Below, one piece after another: positions 1,924-11,677 of a DNA stretch of 54,344 bases. Both the position numbers and the translations under genes were made by a program. The stretch comes from a virus: the UHGV virus genome UHGV-0189308; one strand, 5' to 3'. Positions within the stretch are counted from its first letter, which is position 1. Every line of letters starts with the position of its first letter. The notes beneath the pieces are model-generated. The model made no database searches and was not told where the DNA came from. It saw nothing but the letters and a program-made list of their open reading frames with translations.

Positions 1924-3584
1924 TTACTGTCGAAGAATGGCAGCCCGCAGATGGATTGACGCTGGAACCTAATGCGAAACGTGCTGCGAAAGCGCGTAAA
2001 CGTTGCTTGGCACTGACTGCCGGACCGGGGGCGGGTAAGACGGAAATGCTTGCGCAGCGTGCTGATTTCCTTTTGCGAACAGGAACGTGTCGATACCCTA
2101 AAAGGATTCTGGCGATCTCATTTAAGGTTGATGCCAGCAGAAATCTTACAGAACGTGTTGAACGCAGGTGTGGAAGATACCTGGCTTCTCGCTTTGACAG
2201 TTTTACCTTCCACGCATTTGCCAAACGCATCATAGATCGATTTAGGCCGGTACTTACGGGAGAATATGCCTTAGATGCTGGTTACACCATTGTAGACAAG
2301 AAAAGCGGGGCGTCTCGTCACGAAATAGCATTCGGCGATCTGGTACCTTATGCAATTCAAATATTGCGAACGTCAAAAATAGCCCGAAATGCAATCCGGC
2401 AAACTTATAGTGACATTTTCCTTGATGAATTTCAGGACTGCACAAATTTACAATATGACTTAGTAAAGCTTGCTTTTAAGGGAACAAAAATTCGACTGAC
2501 TGCAGTCGGTGACACAAAACAGAAAATTATGGCTTGGGCAGGTGCTCTGGACGGCATTTTCCAGTCCTTCACAAAGGACTTCAATGCTGTGCCACTCAAC
2601 ATGTATCGCAATTTCCGCTCAAAACCAATTTTGCTGCGTGTTCAGAACGAAATTATTCGTAAGTTAGATCCTGACTCTGTAATGCCTGATTCTCAGCTGG
2701 AAGGGGACGAAGGGGAGGTTTTTGCCTGGAAATTTGAAGACAGTCAAACTGAAGCTATCTATCTGGCTGACCTAATTTATGAATGGATTAACACAGAGAA
2801 GCTACCTCCAGCTGACATTGCAGTCCTGATCTCTAAGCAACCAGATTTATATGCTGATCACCTCTTCAGAGAGTTAGAGCAACGCGGAATTCCCTACCGC
2901 AATGAGCAGCAAATGCAGGACATCACTGTCGAACCAGTGGCTAGGTTAATCGTTGATTACCTATCATGCCTGTATGGACATCGGGAACCTAAAGCCTGGA
3001 TTCGTCTGATGAATCAGCTGGTTCCCTTTGCTGATGAAGAAATTCAAACCAGCGTACGAAAAGATCTTGATCACCTGATTAAAAAGCATCGTAAGGGAGT
3101 GTCTGAAGCAAAAAAAACGGACCATCCCTTTTCTGAATGGTGGACATTTAGTCGCGCTTTCTTAAAGCATATAGGTTTACAGATGCTTGTTGCCTTATCG
3201 CCTGATTATGAGTCCCATGATCGTCTTAAACAGGTTGTGCGCGATGTTGAAGCACGTATTAATGATTTACTGAAAATCGAATCTGATTTACCCCTCGCAT
3301 TAAAACGATTTAGTGATGATCAAGCTGTACGCATTTTGACTATTCACAAAAGCAAAGGATTAGAGTTTGATTCTGTTGTAATCATGGCTATAGAAAATGA
3401 GATATTTTTTGGTGATGAAGAAGAGAATCGCTGTGCGTTTTTTGTCGGTGTTTCGCGAGCAAAGAGACGCCTTATTTTAACGCATACTGACAAGCGTGAT
3501 GAACCTGCTAATGCCAGGCATTGGAAAGTTTTTCGGACTGCTAGAGTAGAGTATTTAAATTATGTTATTCCATTTGTGAGGTAA
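1920..3584 (+). CDS. gajB: Gabija GajB-like UvrD/PcrA-family helicase
   Basis: Walker A LTAGPGAGKT, motif II FLDEFQD, motif VI-like VGVSRAKRRLIL. Translationally coupled to upstream ATPase/TOPRIM gene, which is the canonical two-gene Gabija architecture. Confidence 0.8.
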   Translation: MITVEEWQPADGLTLEPNAKRAAKARKRCLALTAGPGAGKTEMLAQRADFLLRTGTCRYPKRILAISFKVDASRNLTERVERRCGRYLASRFDSFTFHAFAKRIIDRFRPVLTGEYALDAGYTIVDKKSGASRHEIAFGDLVPYAIQILRTSKIARNAIRQTYSDIFLDEFQDCTNLQYDLVKLAFKGTKIRLTAVGDTKQKIMAWAGALDGIFQSFTKDFNAVPLNMYRNFRSKPILLRVQNEIIRKLDPDSVMPDSQLEGDEGEVFAWKFEDSQTEAIYLADLIYEWINTEKLPPADIAVLISKQPDLYADHLFRELEQRGIPYRNEQQMQDITVEPVARLIVDYLSCLYGHREPKAWIRLMNQLVPFADEEIQTSVRKDLDHLIKKHRKGVSEAKKTDHPFSEWWTFSRAFLKHIGLQMLVALSPDYESHDRLKQVVRDVEARINDLLKIESDLPLALKRFSDDQAVRILTIHKSKGLEFDSVVIMAIENEIFFGDEEENRCAFFVGVSRAKRRLILTHTDKRDEPANARHWKVFRTARVEYLNYVIPFVR

Positions 3585-3819: not shown

Positions 3820-4266
3820 TCAGCACCTCGCCGCATTGCGCAGGCAGCGGTTACGCATTTTGGCAAGCAACCAGAGTTCGTTTGCTGTTGTAGCCATCCC
3901 AAGCATCGATGTGTAAACAGTCGCAGCCCGGCGCCACAGCTTTTTGTCTTCCAGCATCTTCGCCAGGGACAGTGCGTCATGGACTTTTTTCACATATTCT
4001 TCAGATAATTGTGTTGCAGCCTGCGGCAGGGCAACATCGGGAACCTCAACGCCTGCAACAACCCGGTAGACATACTGGCAGCCGTTATGGGTACGATGGA
4101 GTTTTCCCGCGGCATGTAGCTGCCGCAGCAAGTTACCTGCTGTACTGGCTTGCAAGTCCAGCGCATCACAGACATCCTGCAGGACGCATTCTGGCGTCCG
4201 GCTAACGATTGCAAACACCATCTGCGCTTTGGTTACTTTGGTTTTTGATTGTTTGGTCATGGTCAA
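3820..4266 (-). CDS. hypothetical nin-region protein, possible PerC/ANR-like regulator
   Basis: ORF of 148 aa. The tool's start is TTG; an ATG 6 nt downstream (4260) is more likely. C-terminal LWRRAATVYTSMLGMATTANELWLLAKMRNRCL resembles the PerC family from memory only. Confidence 0.3.
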   Translation of the reverse strand: MTMTKQSKTKVTKAQMVFAIVSRTPECVLQDVCDALDLQASTAGNLLRQLHAAGKLHRTHNGCQYVYRVVAGVEVPDVALPQAATQLSEEYVKKVHDALSLAKMLEDKKLWRRAATVYTSMLGMATTANELWLLAKMRNRCLRNAARC

Positions 4267-5765: not shown

Positions 5766-6320
5766 TTAGAAAAACTGCGGCGCTACGGCGCTGATGCTCG
5801 CCAGAAGTGGTCCCGCCGCATCTGCAGGAAGCATGTTAAAAAGTGCAATTGCTGCCTCCCGAATTTCACGCTCTAACTTCTGCAACGGAGCACCAAGCAA
5901 TTTTGCCTGGTGCGCTTCGCTACACTCTTTGATTGCTTGAGCCACCAGCTCGCTTTCAGTCAATCCACGTTTCAATCCGTGTTTGCGCGCAATCTCAATA
6001 GGCATCGCATCAGCGATCGCTCCTGAAAGCTGCATGACGTAGCTGGTGTACTTCTCTGATCCGGATTCGTTTTTCAGGTAGCGGTACAGATTCTGTTTAT
6101 TGACGTTAATTCCGCGACCGTTTTGTTTTCTCCATTGCTCATCCACCAGCTGCGCGATGTGGTCCTGTGCACGTCCAGGTAAAGTCGACTCCCATTCCTG
6201 AACGGCAGCAAAAATTGCTCTACTCTTCATCCGAGCCCGGCGTAGACCGGAAAACTGATTTTCTGAGTTCAGTTGCAGGCCCATTACCGGGTTATGATTT
6301 TTAAAAGAGATGGTTTGCAT
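5766..6320 (-). CDS. hypothetical protein in cII/YdaT position
   Basis: 184-aa ORF immediately downstream of the cro-like gene (2-nt gap) and upstream of the O-like gene. No motif recognised with confidence. Confidence 0.3.
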   Translation of the reverse strand: MQTISFKNHNPVMGLQLNSENQFSGLRRARMKSRAIFAAVQEWESTLPGRAQDHIAQLVDEQWRKQNGRGINVNKQNLYRYLKNESGSEKYTSYVMQLSGAIADAMPIEIARKHGLKRGLTESELVAQAIKECSEAHQAKLLGAPLQKLEREIREAAIALFNMLPADAAGPLLASISAVAPQFF

Positions 6321-6322
6321 GG

Positions 6323-6577
6323 TTAAGCCTGCCTCCCACTCAGTTCTTTATCAGTCGGGAAGACGCTATCAAGCGAACATTCAGCTCCTAGTTTGTTAAG
6401 TGCATCCACAATAGAACGGCACTCCGTCAATCCAGGTTCGCGAAGGTTGGCCTCATAATTTGATAGACGCGAACGACCCCAATTGAGAGTTTTTGCAAGC
6501 TGTGCTTGAGAGATGCCCAGCTTTTGACGCTCAGAAGCAATGTTGTTCACTTGATTTCTCCTTGCTATTTGATGCAA
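6323..6577 (-). CDS. Cro-like HTH (XRE family) regulator
   Basis: HTH GISQAQLAKTLNWGRSRLSNYE. Likely real start is GTG at 6550, preceded by a perfect AAGGAG SD. Divergent from the cI-like gene. Confidence 0.7.
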   Translation of the reverse strand: MHQIARRNQVNNIASERQKLGISQAQLAKTLNWGRSRLSNYEANLREPGLTECRSIVDALNKLGAECSLDSVFPTDKELSGRQA

Positions 6578-6659
6578 CCAATTTAGTCACATTATGTGTC
6601 TATTGTCAATCTCAAAACGTGATCAATACGATGCCACAAAGCGTGGTAACATTTTGCAT
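6551..6659. promoter_or_regulatory. divergent cI/cro promoter-operator region
   Basis: Intergenic 109 bp between divergent HTH genes. Holds two CAC-N5-GTG dyads: tCACattatGTGt at 6587-6599 and cCACaaagcGTGg at 6634-6646. Confidence 0.5.
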
Positions 6660-7049
6660 ATGAAAAGCATGTCTGAAGTTGTCGGCGAGAGACTTAAAGC
6701 TCTTCGCGAAAGGAAAAAATTAAGCCAAGCGCAACTTTCTAAGCTGTGCGGCTGGGCTACGGCCTCACGCGTTGGTAACTATGAGCTAGGCGTGAGAAAC
6801 ATAGGTATCGACGATGCTGTTGTCTTGGCGAGAGTGCTGGACACTACCCCGAGTTATCTTCTTTTTGGTGATGAACTTAATAAAGGACAAGAACTCCCCC
6901 CAAAACAACGCAGGATGCTTCATCTTTTCAATCAGTTACCTGATACTGAGCAAGACAGAATGCTAGATCTCTTCGAAGTTCGTTTAAAAGAGATTGATGA
7001 ATACGTTGAGCGATACCTCCAAGGCAGATTCAAGAAAGACTCCGAATAA
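6660..7049 (+). CDS. cI-like prophage repressor (HTH XRE, no peptidase S24 domain)
   Basis: ATG at 6660 (MKSMSEV) within the tool ORF 6594..7049. N-terminal HTH LSQAQLSKLCGWATASRVGNYE. Short helical C-terminal domain without the Ser/Lys autopeptidase motifs. Followed by an intrinsic terminator. Confidence 0.7.
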   Translation: MKSMSEVVGERLKALRERKKLSQAQLSKLCGWATASRVGNYELGVRNIGIDDAVVLARVLDTTPSYLLFGDELNKGQELPPKQRRMLHLFNQLPDTEQDRMLDLFEVRLKEIDEYVERYLQGRFKKDSE

Positions 7050-7060
7050 CGTTGATAAAG

Positions 7061-7085
7061 CCAGCTAGATGCTGGTTTTATTTTA
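7061..7085 (+). terminator. rho-independent terminator after cI-like gene
   Basis: ccagctagatgctgg hairpin followed by ttttatttt. Confidence 0.6.
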
Positions 7086-7110
7086 TCCCCATCGGACACA
7101 TATTGTGTAT

Positions 7111-7141
7111 TGACAAAACAACACATATCGTGACTATAATA
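7111..7141 (+). promoter_or_regulatory. sigma70 consensus promoter (pL-like) with embedded operator dyad
   Basis: TTGACA (7111-7116) ... TGacTATAAT (7132-7141) with a 19-bp spacer. Spacer contains aCACatatcGTGa (7122-7134), matching the operator dyads in the cI/cro intergenic region. Confidence 0.5.
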
Positions 7142-7329
7142 ATCACACAGAAACACGTCATCGAGGCAGGAAGCCCACGAAGTAGCTGCCGGCGGCATAC
7201 GAAACACCGGATGAGATGACAGCAATATCAATCGCAGCAGGTTATAACGTTCCGCCGGCCGGCGTTACAGGCATGAGATAGGACATCACTATGAGAATAG
7301 ATATATCCAAGATAGGGAAAATTTACTTT

Positions 7330-7680
7330 TTACTCGTCTCCCCAATCAAACTCTCTGTCGCGCAGGATTTGGAGGCCCGATTCGGAGACCGCGTAATCAT
7401 TGCAGCTTTTGGTACTGATATCACGTCCATGGGCCTGGCACCAGGTGATGAAATCGTAAGTGCTGGCTACCACCTTCACAGCCTGGATACCGCTGTTTTC
7501 GTAGCGCTCCACCATGCTATCGGTGCGGATACGCCAGTCGTGGTAGTCAAAGGGAAGGACGTAAGCATCTGAAAGGATTTTTTGGAATTCTTCATAGTGA
7601 GCGGGATTTTCGTACCAGAAGACAGGTATAGGGCTACGAGACATTTTGCTCTCTTTTATTTGGCTGTGTGAGAGCGCCAA
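7330..7680 (-). CDS. hypothetical protein (gene A), convergent on cI
   Basis: Probable ATG at 7644 with AAGAGAG SD. Yields about 104 aa, rich in aromatic and charged residues. Conserved 27-bp element just upstream. Overlaps the antisense tool ORF 7291..7572, which I consider less likely. Confidence 0.4.
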   Translation of the reverse strand: MALSHSQIKESKMSRSPIPVFWYENPAHYEEFQKILSDAYVLPFDYHDWRIRTDSMVERYENSGIQAVKVVASTYDFITWCQAHGRDISTKSCNDYAVSESGLQILRDREFDWGDE

Positions 7681-7688
7681 GAATACCG

Positions 7689-7715
7689 CCGAGCCTGGAG
7701 TGGTGAAAAGACAGG
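7689..7715. repeat. 27-bp conserved element, copy 1 (ccgagcctgGagtggtgaaaagacagg)
   Basis: 26/27 identity with copy 2 at 8471-8497. Each copy lies immediately upstream (on the minus strand) of one of the two cI-convergent genes. Copy 1 is preceded by hairpin gcctctcccgagaggc. Confidence 0.6.
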
Positions 7716-7924
7716 AGGTGAGCCTCTCCCGAGAGGCGTTACCAAAGCCAGATTAAGAGCTGGTTTTGGTATCCAGGCAACACCAATCACCACACAGTGG
7801 TTGGGAACCATAAAACGTTCTGCTACCCGGCGAAAAGGGTCAAAATTTCGCTTGCCAGAGTGCTAGGCAAAAAAAAGCGCCCCGATGGACGCTTAGCTCT
7901 TTAACAATCTGGATATCTTTAACA

Positions 7925-8395
7925 TCAGTAGCTGGCTGGAGGTGCAAAATCTGTATCAAACACATTCTTACAGGAGGGGCATCTGCTTTGATTGAAACTC
8001 GCATACATACTCACCTGTTGAGGTTGCAGTATAGATACTTTATTTGCAGCAAAACAATGTGGACAAAGATGCACGGTTATTTCCGTATCACCCACAATCT
8101 GGTTCTTGGAATACACCAGAGAACCAGAATCAAATTTATTCAGAAGATAACCTTCAGTCTGTCTTTTAAAATCTTCGAACTCTGCAATTTTTGCTTTGAG
8201 ATGCATTATCTCTTCATCACGAAGGCGAATAGCATCGCCAAGAGAGAAGCATTCAGCCTGAAGAGTAATTAGTTTGTTCTGGAGATCGATGGTTGCAGCT
8301 TTAACTTCTGCATCAGTCTTTGCGTCATTAATAACTTTAACAAGACCCGCAGTCTCTTTGATAGCGGTCATAGCCGCAGATAATTCAGCTATCAC
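7925..8395 (-). CDS. hypothetical protein (gene B): N-terminal coiled coil, C-terminal C4 zinc ribbon
   Basis: 156 aa. Heptad-like N-terminus (LQNKLITLQAE...IMHLKAKIAEFEDFKRQ). CPHC-x27-CPSC at the C-terminus. Tool start is GTG at 8395 with an AAAGAG SD; the alternative start is ATG MTAIKE. Confidence 0.45.
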   Translation of the reverse strand: MIAELSAAMTAIKETAGLVKVINDAKTDAEVKAATIDLQNKLITLQAECFSLGDAIRLRDEEIMHLKAKIAEFEDFKRQTEGYLLNKFDSGSLVYSKNQIVGDTEITVHLCPHCFAANKVSILQPQQVSMYASFNQSRCPSCKNVFDTDFAPPASY

Positions 8396-8470
8396 TGTAA
8401 ATACTCTTTTTTGTTGTTGGGGATATCCAGATTAAACGAATCCTTGTTGTTGGGGAATAGCCAGGATCCA

Positions 8471-8497
8471 CCGAGCCTGAAGTGGTGAAAAGACAGG
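8471..8497. repeat. 27-bp conserved element, copy 2 (ccgagcctgAagtggtgaaaagacagg)
   Basis: See copy 1. Tandem TTGTTGTTGGGGA repeats at 8412-8424 and 8446-8458 lie between it and the gene B start. Confidence 0.6.
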
Positions 8498-8696
8498 CAT
8501 GACGACTAGTAGGTTTTGCAATGCGGTGAATGCGGCTATGCGCACGCGGCACAGTTAAAAAATAAACATGGCGGTTATTCACATGTTGTGGGGAAAAAGT
8601 TGTCGGCGGTAGTTGTTAACTGGCTGCCGTCACCGGGAGGCACCCGGCGCCGCATTGCAAAACCACATCCTAATACTGAGTTAACTGGAGATAACT

Positions 8697-8819
8697 ATGA
8701 AGGATTTTGCACGAGTACCTACCGGCAACCAGGCGACCCGCCTGAACTGGTTCGAGGTGAGACTACGCCAGCTGTGTTACTTGCTGGCGCAGAAAGGAAA
8801 CCCTGAGGCTGAGGCATGA
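8697..8819 (+). CDS. small ORF (40 aa), first gene of left-operon cluster
   Basis: ATG at 8697 with a GGAGA SD. MKDFARVPTGNQATRLNWFEVRLRQLCYLLAQKGNPEAEA. Stop overlaps the next ATG (ATGA at 8816). Not in the ORF track because it is below the length cutoff. Confidence 0.35.
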   Translation: MKDFARVPTGNQATRLNWFEVRLRQLCYLLAQKGNPEAEA

Positions 8820-9010
8820 ATACCCTGTTTGCCCTTGTCATCAGCGTGTGTGCTCTTACTGGTGAATGCTCTGATGTTCTGATCGGTGTTTATCCATCAG
8901 AGGCCAGTTGCAACAGCAACGCCGATGAACAAAAAGTACAGGGCCAGTGCCTCCCCTACCGAAATGCACAAAACATGGCTGACGACCAACAGCCTGCAGT
9001 GAGTTTTTGA
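8816..9010 (+). CDS. small Cys-rich protein with N-terminal signal/TM segment
   Basis: 64 aa. Hydrophobic N-terminus MNTLFALVISVCALTG, six Cys, acidic tail. Translationally coupled to the upstream 40-aa ORF. Confidence 0.4.
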   Translation: MNTLFALVISVCALTGECSDVLIGVYPSEASCNSNADEQKVQGQCLPYRNAQNMADDQQPAVSF

Positions 9011-9029
9011 ATCGAGTTTTGACCAATGG
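9010..9029. repeat. 20-bp direct repeat gaatcgagttttgaccaatg (copy 1)
   Basis: Identical copy at 9457-9476. The pair brackets the Rrf2-like gene. Confidence 0.6.
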
Positions 9030-9397
9030 CCGTTACGGCCGGAGAAGTGATTATGGAATTTGGAATGAAACGCGTTCTGGCATCTGTCCAGGCCGCCGCC
9101 ACTTTGAATAAGCTCTATGACGGCTCGCCCGTTTCACTGACGGCCATCAGTAAAGAGTCAAAGCTGTCTACTTCATACCTTGAGCAGATCTTCAAAAAGC
9201 TGCGGGCGGGTAACCTGGTAATTTCACAGCGTGGCCCAGGTGGTGGTTATAGCCCCCGCGGCGATGACATCACCGTTACAGAAGTGATCACTGCGGTATC
9301 TAAACTGCCAGCCCATAAAACTTTTGAGCCTATCCTGCGAGCGCTTGACGACGTTCGCGTATCACAGTTGCTGCGGGGTGATTCGCCAGCCCCATAA
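9026..9397 (+). CDS. truncated Rrf2/IscR-like winged-helix regulator
   Basis: Likely start MKRVLAS (about 9065). SYLEQIFKKLRAGNLVISQRGPGGGY matches the Rrf2 signature (IscR ...[26 protein letters not shown]). Lacks the C-terminal dimerisation and Cys-cluster region. Confidence 0.6.
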   Translation: MAVTAGEVIMEFGMKRVLASVQAAATLNKLYDGSPVSLTAISKESKLSTSYLEQIFKKLRAGNLVISQRGPGGGYSPRGDDITVTEVITAVSKLPAHKTFEPILRALDDVRVSQLLRGDSPAP

Positions 9398-9456
9398 AGC
9401 ACAAAACCCGCGCAAGGCGGGTTAAGTACCCGGTCAGCCGACCAAAGCTTTCCGGA

Positions 9457-9476
9457 ATCGAGTTTTGACCAATGAC
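9457..9476. repeat. 20-bp direct repeat gaatcgagttttgaccaatg (copy 2)
   Basis: See copy 1. Confidence 0.6.
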
Positions 9477-9538
9477 CACCACCAGGGCGGCTGCCATCAG
9501 CTGCCGGGTATCTTACAATCCAAAGGAGCCCAAACGCA

Positions 9539-11677
9539 ATGAACAACTACCCGTATCTCATTAAAGCGAAGGCAAAAGCAAACGAAGCGAAAAGTCTCTT
9601 CTGCTGGTTCTCTGCTAAATCCGATTCTCGCGCCGAGCGCAAAATCCTGGACATCCTGGAAGACGCTGAAATTAACGTTGGCCGCGGCGCCAGCCATCAG
9701 CTGCCGATCCGCACCAACTGGCTCATCGTTGATGACTTACCGGAAGAAGGTGTACTGGATGACACCTGGTGCGATCGCTACGAGCTTGGTGGTGAAGACG
9801 GGCTGACATGGCAAAAAATCGTTGCGTCGGCGGCTGCTGAACCACAGCCCTCCAGTAAACCAGAAAACGATATCTCTCCTGCAAATAGCGATGAAGAGGA
9901 CTATTCGAACAATGAAGAAGCACTCTTCAACCTGGCGGAAATGTCATTCCGCACGCAACTGCTTGCCCAGTATATGGCCGACGAGCGTCACGTGTATCAC
10001 ATTAGCATTCCTCATCGTAACCGCCTTTCAGCGATGGAAATGGATACGGATAATCACGGTGTGCAGAATCTGCTGCTGACGGCAGAAAACATTCCGGAGC
10101 TTAAAAAATATGATATGCCTGGCCTGTGGAAATTTACCAGTGCATTTAAGAGCGTATTTCCTGTGGGGAAACGCCATGAGCTCGGCAAGCAAATTCAGTT
10201 CGCCAAATTGTGGCTTGAAACGTCGCACATTGACCGCGGGATCCTTACAAAGGAATGGGCTGCTGGAAACTATATCACCTCAATAAACAAAACCGATGCC
10301 GGCGCCAATGCTGGCGGCGGTAACAAAACTGACCGCAATCCGGATTATCAGCATTCGCTGGATACTCTGGATATAGAGATCGCCCTTGCGACGATGCCTA
10401 TGGATTTTGATATCTATAATTTTCCGGCATCAGTCCACCGCCGCGCGAAGGAAATAGTACAGAAGAAAGAAAGTCCATTTAAAGAATGGTCTGCAGCATT
10501 ACGGAGCACACCAGGCATCCTTGATTATTCCCGTGCAGCGATTTTTGCACTAATCAGGGAAGCATCCAGTGGAATAACTCCTTTTCCAGATCGGTTGCGT
10601 GGCTACATCAACGCGAATCTGACTGAACATAAGCATGATACCCCGAGCGCTGAAACGCTTGCCAAGGCGGGACATATTCCATCTGCTGCAGTCACTCTGG
10701 ATGCAATAAACCAAGCAATCGCCGGAGATGATAGCAGCGCAAACCTGGAAACACTCTCCTCCGACTTTAAAGCAGTTGGTACCGAACTGGTAAAAGAGGC
10801 TCAAAAGCAACGACCAGACGCTAATCAGGTTCTGGCCTCCGAGCGCGGCGAATATGTTGAAGGGATTAGCGACCCTACGGATCCGAAGTGGATAACCGAA
10901 GACCTTACCAAGACCAGGCAGCCTGAAGTTTCAAAAATTGGGGACGGAGTATTTTCCATTGACGATCTTGTTGATGTTAAGGGCAAGGTTAACCAAAAAG
11001 AAAAAACAGATGAAGTTGTTCATCAAACGGATGCTGTAGATATTGAATCCGGTCATCATAATAAGGATGAAGATCAGCCAATTGATTATGTTCACGTTAT
11101 GGTTGATCTGGAAACCATGGGTAAAAAAAATAACGCCCCTATCGTCGCTATTGGTGCGGTTGTTTTTGACCCGGCAACCGGCTCTATTGGAGAAAGTTTC
11201 TATAAAGTCGTATGCCTTGAATCCTCTGTGAACTGGGGCGCCGTAATCGATCCATCTACTGTTATCTGGTGGCTTAAGCAGTCCTCCGAAGCACGCTCTG
11301 CGATCGTAAATGATGATGCTATCCCGTTGCAGGATGCATTACTCCAGTTCAGAGAATTTGTTGATGATAATGTCGCTGGTGGGAGCAAAAAGGCGCAGGT
11401 ATGGGGTAACGGTGCGTCATTCGACAACTCTATTCTGCGTTCTTCTTACGATTGCATTGCTGAAGATTATCCGTGGGAATACTGGAACGATCGGGACGTA
11501 CGAACAATGGTAGAGCTCGGCCAGGCCATTAGCTTCGACCCCAAAACAACGATCCCGTTTGAAGGGTCTCGTCACAATGCCCTAGCTGATGCTATTCATC
11601 AGGCCCGCTATGTATCAGCGATCTGGCAGCGAATAATTGCCGGCCATCAGGTGCTGCAAAAATTGATGCAAAACTGA
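9539..11677 (+). CDS. large phage protein with C-terminal DEDDh 3'-5' exonuclease (DnaQ/ExoX-like) domain
   Basis: C-terminal about 190 aa carry Exo I VDLETMG, Exo II WGNGASFD and Exo III HNALADA motifs. The N-terminal about 500 aa are unrecognised. Occupies the exo/bet region upstream of xis-int; no Bet/RecT/Erf-type recombinase was seen in this block. Confidence 0.65.
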   Translation: MNNYPYLIKAKAKANEAKSLFCWFSAKSDSRAERKILDILEDAEINVGRGASHQLPIRTNWLIVDDLPEEGVLDDTWCDRYELGGEDGLTWQKIVASAAAEPQPSSKPENDISPANSDEEDYSNNEEALFNLAEMSFRTQLLAQYMADERHVYHISIPHRNRLSAMEMDTDNHGVQNLLLTAENIPELKKYDMPGLWKFTSAFKSVFPVGKRHELGKQIQFAKLWLETSHIDRGILTKEWAAGNYITSINKTDAGANAGGGNKTDRNPDYQHSLDTLDIEIALATMPMDFDIYNFPASVHRRAKEIVQKKESPFKEWSAALRSTPGILDYSRAAIFALIREASSGITPFPDRLRGYINANLTEHKHDTPSAETLAKAGHIPSAAVTLDAINQAIAGDDSSANLETLSSDFKAVGTELVKEAQKQRPDANQVLASERGEYVEGISDPTDPKWITEDLTKTRQPEVSKIGDGVFSIDDLVDVKGKVNQKEKTDEVVHQTDAVDIESGHHNKDEDQPIDYVHVMVDLETMGKKNNAPIVAIGAVVFDPATGSIGESFYKVVCLESSVNWGAVIDPSTVIWWLKQSSEARSAIVNDDAIPLQDALLQFREFVDDNVAGGSKKAQVWGNGASFDNSILRSSYDCIAEDYPWEYWNDRDVRTMVELGQAISFDPKTTIPFEGSRHNALADAIHQARYVSAIWQRIIAGHQVLQKLMQN

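Follow-up and report, generated by a model that had tools for sequence, protein, structure and literature searches.

Why should two small genes that run against their surroundings, next to a phage repressor, both be preceded by almost the same short sequence? The question is raised by genes A and B of virus genome UHGV-0189308 (54,344 nt, the whole of which is the window of this analysis; the plus strand of the region around A and B is the "leftward" one of lambda), which lie on the minus strand between a cI-like repressor gene and the left operon. The original prediction took them for a co-regulated two-gene module of unknown function, in a position resembling that of rexAB, where lambdoid phages have defence or exclusion genes, and with the shared 27-bp element as the mark of the pair. 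Our analysis points to another answer: the region 7146–8700 is probably a dispensable slot for cargo at the promoter-proximal end of the early-left (PL) operon, in a lambdoid Klebsiella prophage of the e14/SfV kind, where two unrelated single-gene cassettes are stacked against PL.

A and B are independent accessory genes and not a module. Both are real minus-strand genes, each with a match to a PHROG family, and the antisense plus-strand open reading frame (ORF) at 7291–7572, checked as the conserved gene in their place, matched no family and is unrelated to its positional equivalents, ymfJ in e14 and orf33 in SfV. The element is equally real: copies identical at 26/27 positions stand upstream of A and B, at 7689–7715 and 8471–8497, the repeat extends to 30 nt (7686–7715 and 8468–8497, 28/30), and the window holds no further copy within three mismatches (0 expected by chance). 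It is the pairing that failed. Among the loci fetched, 17 carry A alone, 30 B alone and three both genes, and these three (L017, L052 and L096) are close relatives of the window (95–98% identity). Klebsiella phage Kp4865-4, 97.6% aligned on both sides, has a single copy of the element and lacks exactly 782 bp, corresponding to B plus one repeat. Moreover, B is closed by a minus-strand intrinsic terminator of its own (8-bp stem followed by T8), which is conserved across genera, and A and B are therefore separate transcription units.

Nor does the element mark these two genes in particular. The exact 27-mer occurs in at least 120 viral contigs (one copy each among the matches listed), in SfV and SfII, and in 848 of 5426 complete E. 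coli genomes, at a median of one and a maximum of three places, on separate prophages. In K-12 it is found in the cryptic prophage e14, 45 nt upstream of ymfI, and is missing from CPS-53. In every case it separates a plus-strand left operon from a minus-strand ORF, the start of which lies 40–47 nt away, or 75–77 nt away for genes of the Rip1 type to which B belongs (see below). These cargo ORFs come from at least 15 unrelated families, that of ymfI being one of them, and most encode small proteins (60–160 aa); ten cargo proteins other than A and B had no PADLOC match, one being of the BssS family and one weakly Lar-like. SfV (L002, NC_003444) supplies a further example in an 81-aa ORF (MTFDEKELDNAINK..., ~2716–2958, minus strand in the orientation of the locus), the start of which lies 42 nt from the 27-mer and which recurs, conserved, in 52 viral contigs. 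The annotated orf33 overlaps this ORF from the opposite strand, and the deposited record has probably named the wrong one of the two.

A ~32-nt block, GCCTGTCTTTTCACCACTTCAGGCTCGGTGG, has the 27-mer as its core; it forms the upstream border of the cargo units at the slot and constitutes a shared 5' control block, the conserved unit on the cargo strand being GCCTGTCTTTTCACCACTTCAGGCTCGGTGGTAT, a stem-loop, AAGGA and the start codon. Sequence on the outer side of the block diverges at once, and the cross-genus homology of Rip1-type units begins sharply at GCCTG (8499), even outside lambdoid contexts, and runs from there towards the cargo gene, which makes the block a part of the cargo unit rather than of the left operon. 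It also stays with Rip1-type genes elsewhere, as in Plesiomonas, between cIII and N, and in an island next to icd in Erwinia. In the window, it is the internal copy 1 that departs from the consensus, at two positions (CCGCC and CTGGAG).

The placement of the slot is read from a putative OL/PL directly 3' of the repressor stop codon and a hairpin with T-run, the cI terminator. Operator-like 11-mers, CACATATTGTG (7097–7107) and CACATATCGTG (7122–7132), flank or overlap the putative promoter; the PL-flanking 11-mer recurs in the cro–cI intergenic region (6588–6598), and another operator-like 11-mer is present at 8580–8590, inside the left-operon leader. The arrangement is the same in SfV, where the cI terminator is followed by a TTGACA and two copies of that phage's OR-type operator overlap it. 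Since the putative PL follows cI directly, A and B lie downstream of it and antisense to its transcript, which would cross ~1.5 kb before the first left-operon gene (8697), and the geometry would fit a convergent excludon, with PL (7110–7140) facing both cassettes. Lambda rexAB is an obligate pair, co-transcribed from PRM and situated on the cI strand in the interval from cI to PL. A and B would share with it a defence function by the immunity region and expression in the lysogen, but differ in being downstream of PL, on the opposite strand and mutually independent. Accordingly, of the suggestion that defence- or exclusion-type genes sit here by the immunity region in a rexAB-like position, the first half holds, in that both are accessory, non-housekeeping genes, B being of the Rip1 family and the A family residing next to cI/cro; the position is instead like those of HK620 hkaP and HK446 rip1. 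As a separate observation, the cI-like repressor has no S24 peptidase domain, and induction may need an antirepressor, as in Gifsy-type phages, and not proceed by RecA-mediated self-cleavage.

B is a clear homologue and new member of the Rip1 family, judged from its profile and predicted fold, and a pore-forming anti-phage role can be proposed for it by homology. Its start (GTG, 8395) is backed by 48 aligned homologues, and the predicted coiled coil and C4 zinc ribbon were borne out as long N-terminal helices and a C-terminal four-cysteine ribbon, with C111, C114, C139 and C142 invariant in all 48. A profile built from these matched one entry in the PDB, 9oox_L (E 9e-18, residues 5–150), annotated as 'ring interacting pore 1 (Rip1)' of phage HK446 bound to the T6 small terminase; B as a single sequence matched 9oox at E 2.7e-9, with both CxxC pairs aligned to those of HK446. 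Its AlphaFold2 model (predicted local distance difference test score, pLDDT, 90.4) has helices at residues 2–24 and 28–79, followed by a beta-rich domain, and in a Foldseek search of the PDB gave significant matches to 9oox_M and 9oox_L only (probability 1.00, template modelling score 0.61/0.73), with no other at E<0.4. By tblastn, B matched JBD30 (gp30) and its relatives DMS3 and D3112 (27.6% identity, 97% coverage, E 6e-11), HkaP of HK620 (33% identity) and gp37 of HK446 (25%, E 1e-6), whereas PADLOC, Pfam and NCBIfam returned only weak zinc-ribbon and coiled-coil noise.

What Rip1 does is outlined, for HK446 and for Pseudomonas Rip1, in a review (PMC13434031) that cites Patel et al. 2026 (Nature 651:1060): according to it, Rip1 is a single prophage-encoded protein, harmless alone, that binds the ring of the small terminase or, in Pseudomonas, of the portal, and assembles around it as a 12-mer to form a membrane pore and abort the infection. 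The position of JBD30 gp30, between the small-terminase-like gp29 and TerL and on the opposite strand, agrees with the Rip1 location given there. B resembles these proteins (JBD30-type gene, HK446 gp37) in whole-protein sequence and fold (156 against 164 aa), in its long N-terminal helices and C-terminal beta/zinc-ribbon domain with both CxxC pairs, and in being a stand-alone prophage gene antisense inside a lytic operon. It differs in falling within a separate enterobacterial subfamily, the C-terminal tail of which varies (25–28% identity; 33% to HkaP), in heading the PL operon, where known members come after N or between terminase genes, and possibly in its conserved ~105-nt leader and 3' module. 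HK446 rip1 and HK620 hkaP lie just after N and are convergent with PL; functional data on hkaP were not found in the literature. Other homologues of B occupy defence-island contexts, one adjoining a BstA-like gene between cI and N in a Plesiomonas prophage (L131, 5226–6152) and one adjoining Kiwa (KwaA) and ParE genes in the Erwinia island (L133, 5156–6548). The family phrog_1244, listed as 'hypothetical protein' and widespread in prophages of Klebsiella, E. coli, Citrobacter, Enterobacter, Edwardsiella and relatives, thereby gains a name and a testable mechanism. In phages of three unrelated groups, Rip1 genes are placed antisense within lytic operons, a placement that suggests a way for a prophage to keep from setting off its own sensor.

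Cassette 2, which contains B (~7864–8499), is a complete horizontally mobile unit in which a conserved 5' leader and a terminator frame the ORF. A diverged version of the block and the ~105-nt leader are retained by Rip1-type genes in a dozen other genera, and the G+C content of B (0.39–0.40) is set off from that of its flanks (~0.50). Of the tandem repeats originally noted upstream of B, the pair itself exists, TTGTTGTTGGGGA being found at 8411–8423 and 8444–8456, but with starts 33 nt apart these are spaced direct repeats and not strictly tandem. Two further features of the unit may be recorded here. The two conserved TCCCCAACAACAA boxes of the leader read as (ARN)3 tracts and could be Hfq or S1 sites. 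In addition, AATCTGGATATCC in the leader is complementary over 12–13 nt to GGATATCCAGATT at the 3' end (7906–7927 and 8412–8433 in the window), both being conserved across genera in the Rip1-type loci L129–L153, which could reflect pairing of the 5' and 3' ends of the mRNA or two half-sites around the palindrome GGATATCC.

Gene A, the cargo of cassette 1 (7330–7715), required a correction: the gene predicted at 7330..7680 is sound, but its start is ATG 7644 and not TTG 7680, because all homologues are 104 aa long and begin with MSRSPIP. The distance from the block to the start codon is consequently 45 nt. Only Klebsiella, Pluralibacter and Citrobacter have close homologues of A, and an exhaustive profile search found 143 representative relatives of ~100 aa, all 69 of the aligned ones falling in phrog_4753; neither A nor the wider family has a match in Pfam, NCBIfam, PADLOC or the PDB. 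The relatives in prophages of Marichromatium, Novosphingobium and Sphingomonas lie between cro and a cII-like gene, on the strand opposite to that operon, and those of Bradyrhizobium and Klebsiella between repressor and left operon, against the lytic operon, so that the family adjoins the cI/cro switch in all prophage contexts examined, from Klebsiella to Sphingomonas. Because of this constant placement by the immunity switch, antisense to a lytic operon, A is likely to be a gene of the lysogenic phase, and its family, still uncharacterised, offers a concrete candidate at the cI/cro switch of distant Proteobacteria. Its G+C content (0.50) does not deviate from that of its neighbours, and the terminator scan found no terminator for it.

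Table 1. Features at and around the PL-proximal cargo slot of UHGV-0189308 (positions in the window; SD, Shine–Dalgarno sequence; MFE, minimum free energy).
Feature	Position	Strand	Basis or remarks
Cro-like helix-turn-helix (HTH) gene, diverging from the cI-like gene	6323-6577	-	
cI-like repressor, 129 aa, HTH only, without S24 peptidase domain	6660..7049	+	Pfam HTH_3, E 2e-10; PHROG transcriptional repressor families
Putative OL/PL: TTGACA 7110-7115, 19-nt spacer, TATAAT 7135-7140	7095..7140	+	Read from sequence
PL-proximal leader (aggcaggaMgcccacgaagtagc...)	7156..7264	+	89% identity to Citrobacter phage Chris1; motif also after PL in SfV
Gene A, 104 aa, cargo of cassette 1	7330..7644	-	phrog_4753, E 3e-27
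Leader of A with block copy 1 (block 7686-7715; GGCGGTAT; hairpin TTGGC/GCCAA; SD AGAGAG)	7645..7715	-	
Foreign left flank, carried in with cassette 2	7716..7863		
Conserved 3' module: GGATATCCAGATT, then terminator AAGCGTCC-ATCG-GGGCGCTT-T8 (7894-7875)	7864..7924	-	Terminator scan; inverted repeat; ~15 genera
Gene B, 156 aa, cargo of cassette 2, Rip1 family	7925..8395	-	phrog_1244, E 2e-49
Rip1-type 5' leader: two TCCCCAACAACAA boxes, AATCTGGATATCC, hairpin GGATCCT/AGGATTC, block copy 2 (8468-8497, consensus)	8396..8499	-	
Structured leader of the left operon, perfect 15-bp long-range stem 8512-8526/8650-8664	8512..8664	+	MFE -70 kcal/mol, z -2.85
First gene of the early-left operon, 40 aa, phrog_22279	8697..8819	+	Elsewhere starts ~12-25 nt after the 27-mer

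How might the block act? In a systematic scan, the only consistently placed sigma-70-like signal was TTCACC-N16-TGgTATnnT, found at a fixed place in 56 of 60 distinct leader sequences, and we prefer, with moderate confidence, to read the 27-mer as the −35 element and spacer of a putative extended −10 promoter for cargo other than the Rip1 type. A stem-loop is present in ~30 of 33 distinct leaders (z −2 to −4), and although its stems vary (CTTGG/CCAAG, GCTGG/CCAGC, CCTTC/GAAGG, CCTTTTA/TAAAAGG and others) pairing is kept. In the alignment of Rip1-type stem-loops, 94.6% of cells are paired and three pairs show compensatory changes, with U-G pairs on the cargo-sense strand; the covariation score of 0.105, compared with 0.056 for shuffles, was reached by 0 of 500 shuffles. 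Within the block itself, the dyads GCCTG/CAGGC and CCAC/GTGG are nearly invariant, with one compensatory change, and could form an RNA pseudoknot or a protein-binding site. The listing of e14 ymfI–ymfJ as a convergent excludon from RNA-seq (PMC12288877) supports transcription of the cargo strand and overlap at the slot.

Two leads from the literature on ymfI were set aside. The gene is listed under 'potential SOS box' (PMC6590174), but the block has CTG-N14-CAG, not CTG-N10-CAG, and the phages that carry it have unrelated repressors, which argues against a LexA or cI operator. A peak near ymfI for a minor sigma factor, from systematic evolution of ligands by exponential enrichment (PMC5493296), maps inside xisE, ~600 bp away, and is not evidence for the block.

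Several observations weigh against the interpretation given so far. The promoter scan did not pick up PL, because its 19-nt spacer lies outside the 16–18 nt allowed there. The identity of B to experimentally tested Rip1 proteins is only 25–33%, and A has no functional annotation, its structure model from a seven-sequence alignment (pLDDT 52) being unusable and kept out of the fold search. Rip1-type leaders carry GGTGGATCC in place of the TAT −10 element, so the proposed promoter, as written, cannot serve B. For the other cargo, with transcription beginning ~7 nt after TATnnT, the 5' arm of the stem would be missing from the RNA although the stem co-varies; this co-variation, with the G-U pairs on the cargo strand, would put the transcription start further upstream, where 13 different right flanks revealed no consistent −10 element at a fixed distance from the block. 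Finally, the plus-strand version of the stem-loop has the higher mean stability (−9.5 compared with −7.4 kcal/mol, p 5e-4).

The last of these points bears on an alternative that we regard as unlikely but that fares best among the rivals, namely that the 27-mer is a structured RNA in the plus-strand PL transcript, folded as a hairpin or as a pseudoknot of GCCUG/CAGGC and CCAC/GUGG, which serves processing, stability, antitermination or translation of the first left gene while cargo merely inserted alongside. Besides the stability on the plus strand, it would account for the ribosome-binding site of the first left-operon gene lying ~12 nt after the 27-mer in several contigs, for a block conserved far beyond the needs of a promoter spacer, and for candidate helices that are ~96–97% paired with one compensatory change; helix 1 is, however, invariant and so carries no covariation signal. 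What tells for the cargo strand is that the block is kept where the left operon does not follow (Plesiomonas cIII–N, the Erwinia icd/Kiwa island and copy 1 of the window), that homology starts at the outer edge of the block and proceeds towards the cargo, and that the U-G pairs favour that strand.

The control block of independent cargo also has to be set against the two-gene defence or exclusion system with which we began, in which the 27-mer would be a common operator or promoter. The two genes do share an orientation, each has its block, and the tandem is kept in L017, L052 and L096, but the counts of 17, 30 and 3 loci, the isogenic Kp4865-4 without B and the terminator between B and A make such a system very improbable, and to this can be added that homologues of B act as single genes in the account cited above (PMC13434031), that the block heads at least 15 unrelated genes and that its internal copy is the degenerate one. 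It seems just as improbable that the block and the adjacent imperfect inverted repeat form an attC-like site for site-specific recombination and that the window holds a two-cassette array. The sharp homology edge, the joint within 1–2 nt of that edge, the single copy per cassette and a hairpin conserved in structure but not in sequence all speak in favour of such a site; against this, at least 120 viral contigs have one copy each and E. coli genomes at most three, on separate prophages, no linked recombinase lies next to the slot, exchange boundaries fall at the start codon in a shared leader, as for homologous recombination, and the insert carries 150 bp of unrelated flank, indicative of an illegitimate join. 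That the 27-mer is a common host repeat of the repetitive extragenic palindromic (REP) or bacterial interspersed mosaic element (BIME) kind, supported by nothing except its being short and conserved, with internal dyad symmetry, can be dismissed, given 848 of 5426 E. coli genomes, a median of one and a maximum of three copies and always the same prophage slot.

With the block taken as the 5' control element of each cassette, the stacking itself can be given a plausible history. The DNA between the cassettes is foreign to its present place: 7721–7782 is 93.5% identical to the terminator directly after a stop codon in phage KpnBHU6, a tIMM-like terminator of a repressor gene that resembles the cI terminator of the window, 7778–7843 matches PL-proximal DNA of other 27-mer loci (blastn against the fetched loci), and 7864–7917 is the 3' module that Rip1-type units conserve. 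The novel joint lies within 1–2 nt of the block edge. A Rip1 unit, still with ~150 bp of what had been its left flank, would thus have been joined to the outer (right) edge of the block in an A-only phage of the Kp4865-4 type, leaving the block duplicated. The block would most likely supply the expression signal and also be the homology handle for the exchange of cargo.

The two stacked cassettes are most likely morons. As for behaviour, in the lysogen cI would shut PL and A and Rip1 would be transcribed unopposed, whereas upon induction transcription from PL would run head-on through both cassettes and silence them, as in a convergent excludon. Such silencing would also keep Rip1 from acting on the terminase and portal of the phage that encodes it. 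By homology, the C-terminal zinc ribbon of the cassette 2 product would dock on the ring of the small terminase or portal, and the N-terminal amphipathic helices would then form a pore. It is also possible, though we offer this only tentatively, that the ~32-nt block with its stem-loop is a dedicated, portable regulatory device of e14/SfV-like prophages across Enterobacterales, which confers lysogeny-specific expression on cargo (through an excludon with PL, possibly with an RNA fold or a binding protein) and doubles as the recombination handle of an exchange hot-spot, the cargo being a reservoir of single-gene anti-phage or lysogeny functions. If so, the dozen or more tiny unannotated cargo proteins, among them e14 YmfI and those of the SfV gene opposite orf33 and of gene A, would represent an untapped reservoir, the A family, conserved by immunity switches from alpha- to gamma-proteobacteria, being a new one. 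The 27–32 nt tag locates the slot just downstream of PL in hundreds of genomes, allowing a cheap harvest of candidate lysogen-expressed defence genes, and ymfI of K-12 offers a tractable model for how the block functions.

We know of no description of this slot, our search not having been exhaustive, but several known systems resemble it in part. One is e14 ymfI–ymfJ, where block, leader architecture and location are identical (in order, repressor ymfK, the PL side, ymfJ, ymfI convergent to it, the block and ymfH–xisE–intE); it differs in having other cargo (ymfI at 3927–4339 of L162), a LexA-like repressor and a single cassette. HK620 hkaP and sieB of lambda and P22 are likewise accessory genes with their own signals in the early-left operon, near the immunity region, and hkaP is of the Rip1 family and convergent with PL; the present slot differs from theirs in preceding all left-operon genes, with no N gene evident, and in having a conserved marker for many unrelated genes. 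Morons, reportedly described for lambdoid phages by Juhala and colleagues in 2000, and prophage hot-spots are comparable as autonomous accessory genes that occupy a variable locus of fixed position among conserved genes of the phage. B conforms to the moron pattern in its terminator and deviant G+C content, whereas A (0.50, terminator not found in the scan) does not; as for promoters of their own, the TTCACC-N16-TGgTATnnT signal keeps a fixed place in 56 of 60 leaders, is missing from Rip1-type leaders and conflicts with the co-varying hairpin. The cargo here further differs from morons in sharing an upstream block and a co-varying leader hairpin. Related precedents are the defence hot-spots of P2 and P4 prophages (Rousset et al. 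2022, PMC9122126) and BstA next to a repressor (Owen et al. 2021, PMC8585504).

The putative PL transcript would contain two leader elements on either side of the cassettes. The first, at 7156–7264, is common to SfV (counterpart at 2425–2480), Chris1 and many Rip1-type loci, in phages whose repressors differ. In L138, L139, L142, L143, L148 and L149, its reverse complement directly adjoins the Rip1 terminator. A role as a 5' element of the transcript, nut/put-like or other, is possible; the fold is unremarkable (z −1.1) and without Rfam match. The second, the structured leader at 8512–8664, is missing from many related contigs, where the 27-mer leads directly into the first left-operon gene. 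Its match to the prophage sRNA family STnc100 stays under the threshold (33.8 bits against a gathering score of 47, with E 8e-5) and was the sole match for block and leaders in an Rfam search of 6000–10000 on both strands, and none of eight related loci reached the gathering score for STnc100. Beyond the first left-operon gene follow DUF1482, an Rrf2-like gene, exonuclease, xis and int. The Rrf2-like gene (9026–9397) is itself bracketed by 23-nt direct repeats, GAATCGAGTTTTGACCAATGRCC, at 9009–9031 and 9455–9477 (22/23 identical), the first of which contains its start codon, in what looks like another insertion signature at a module junction.

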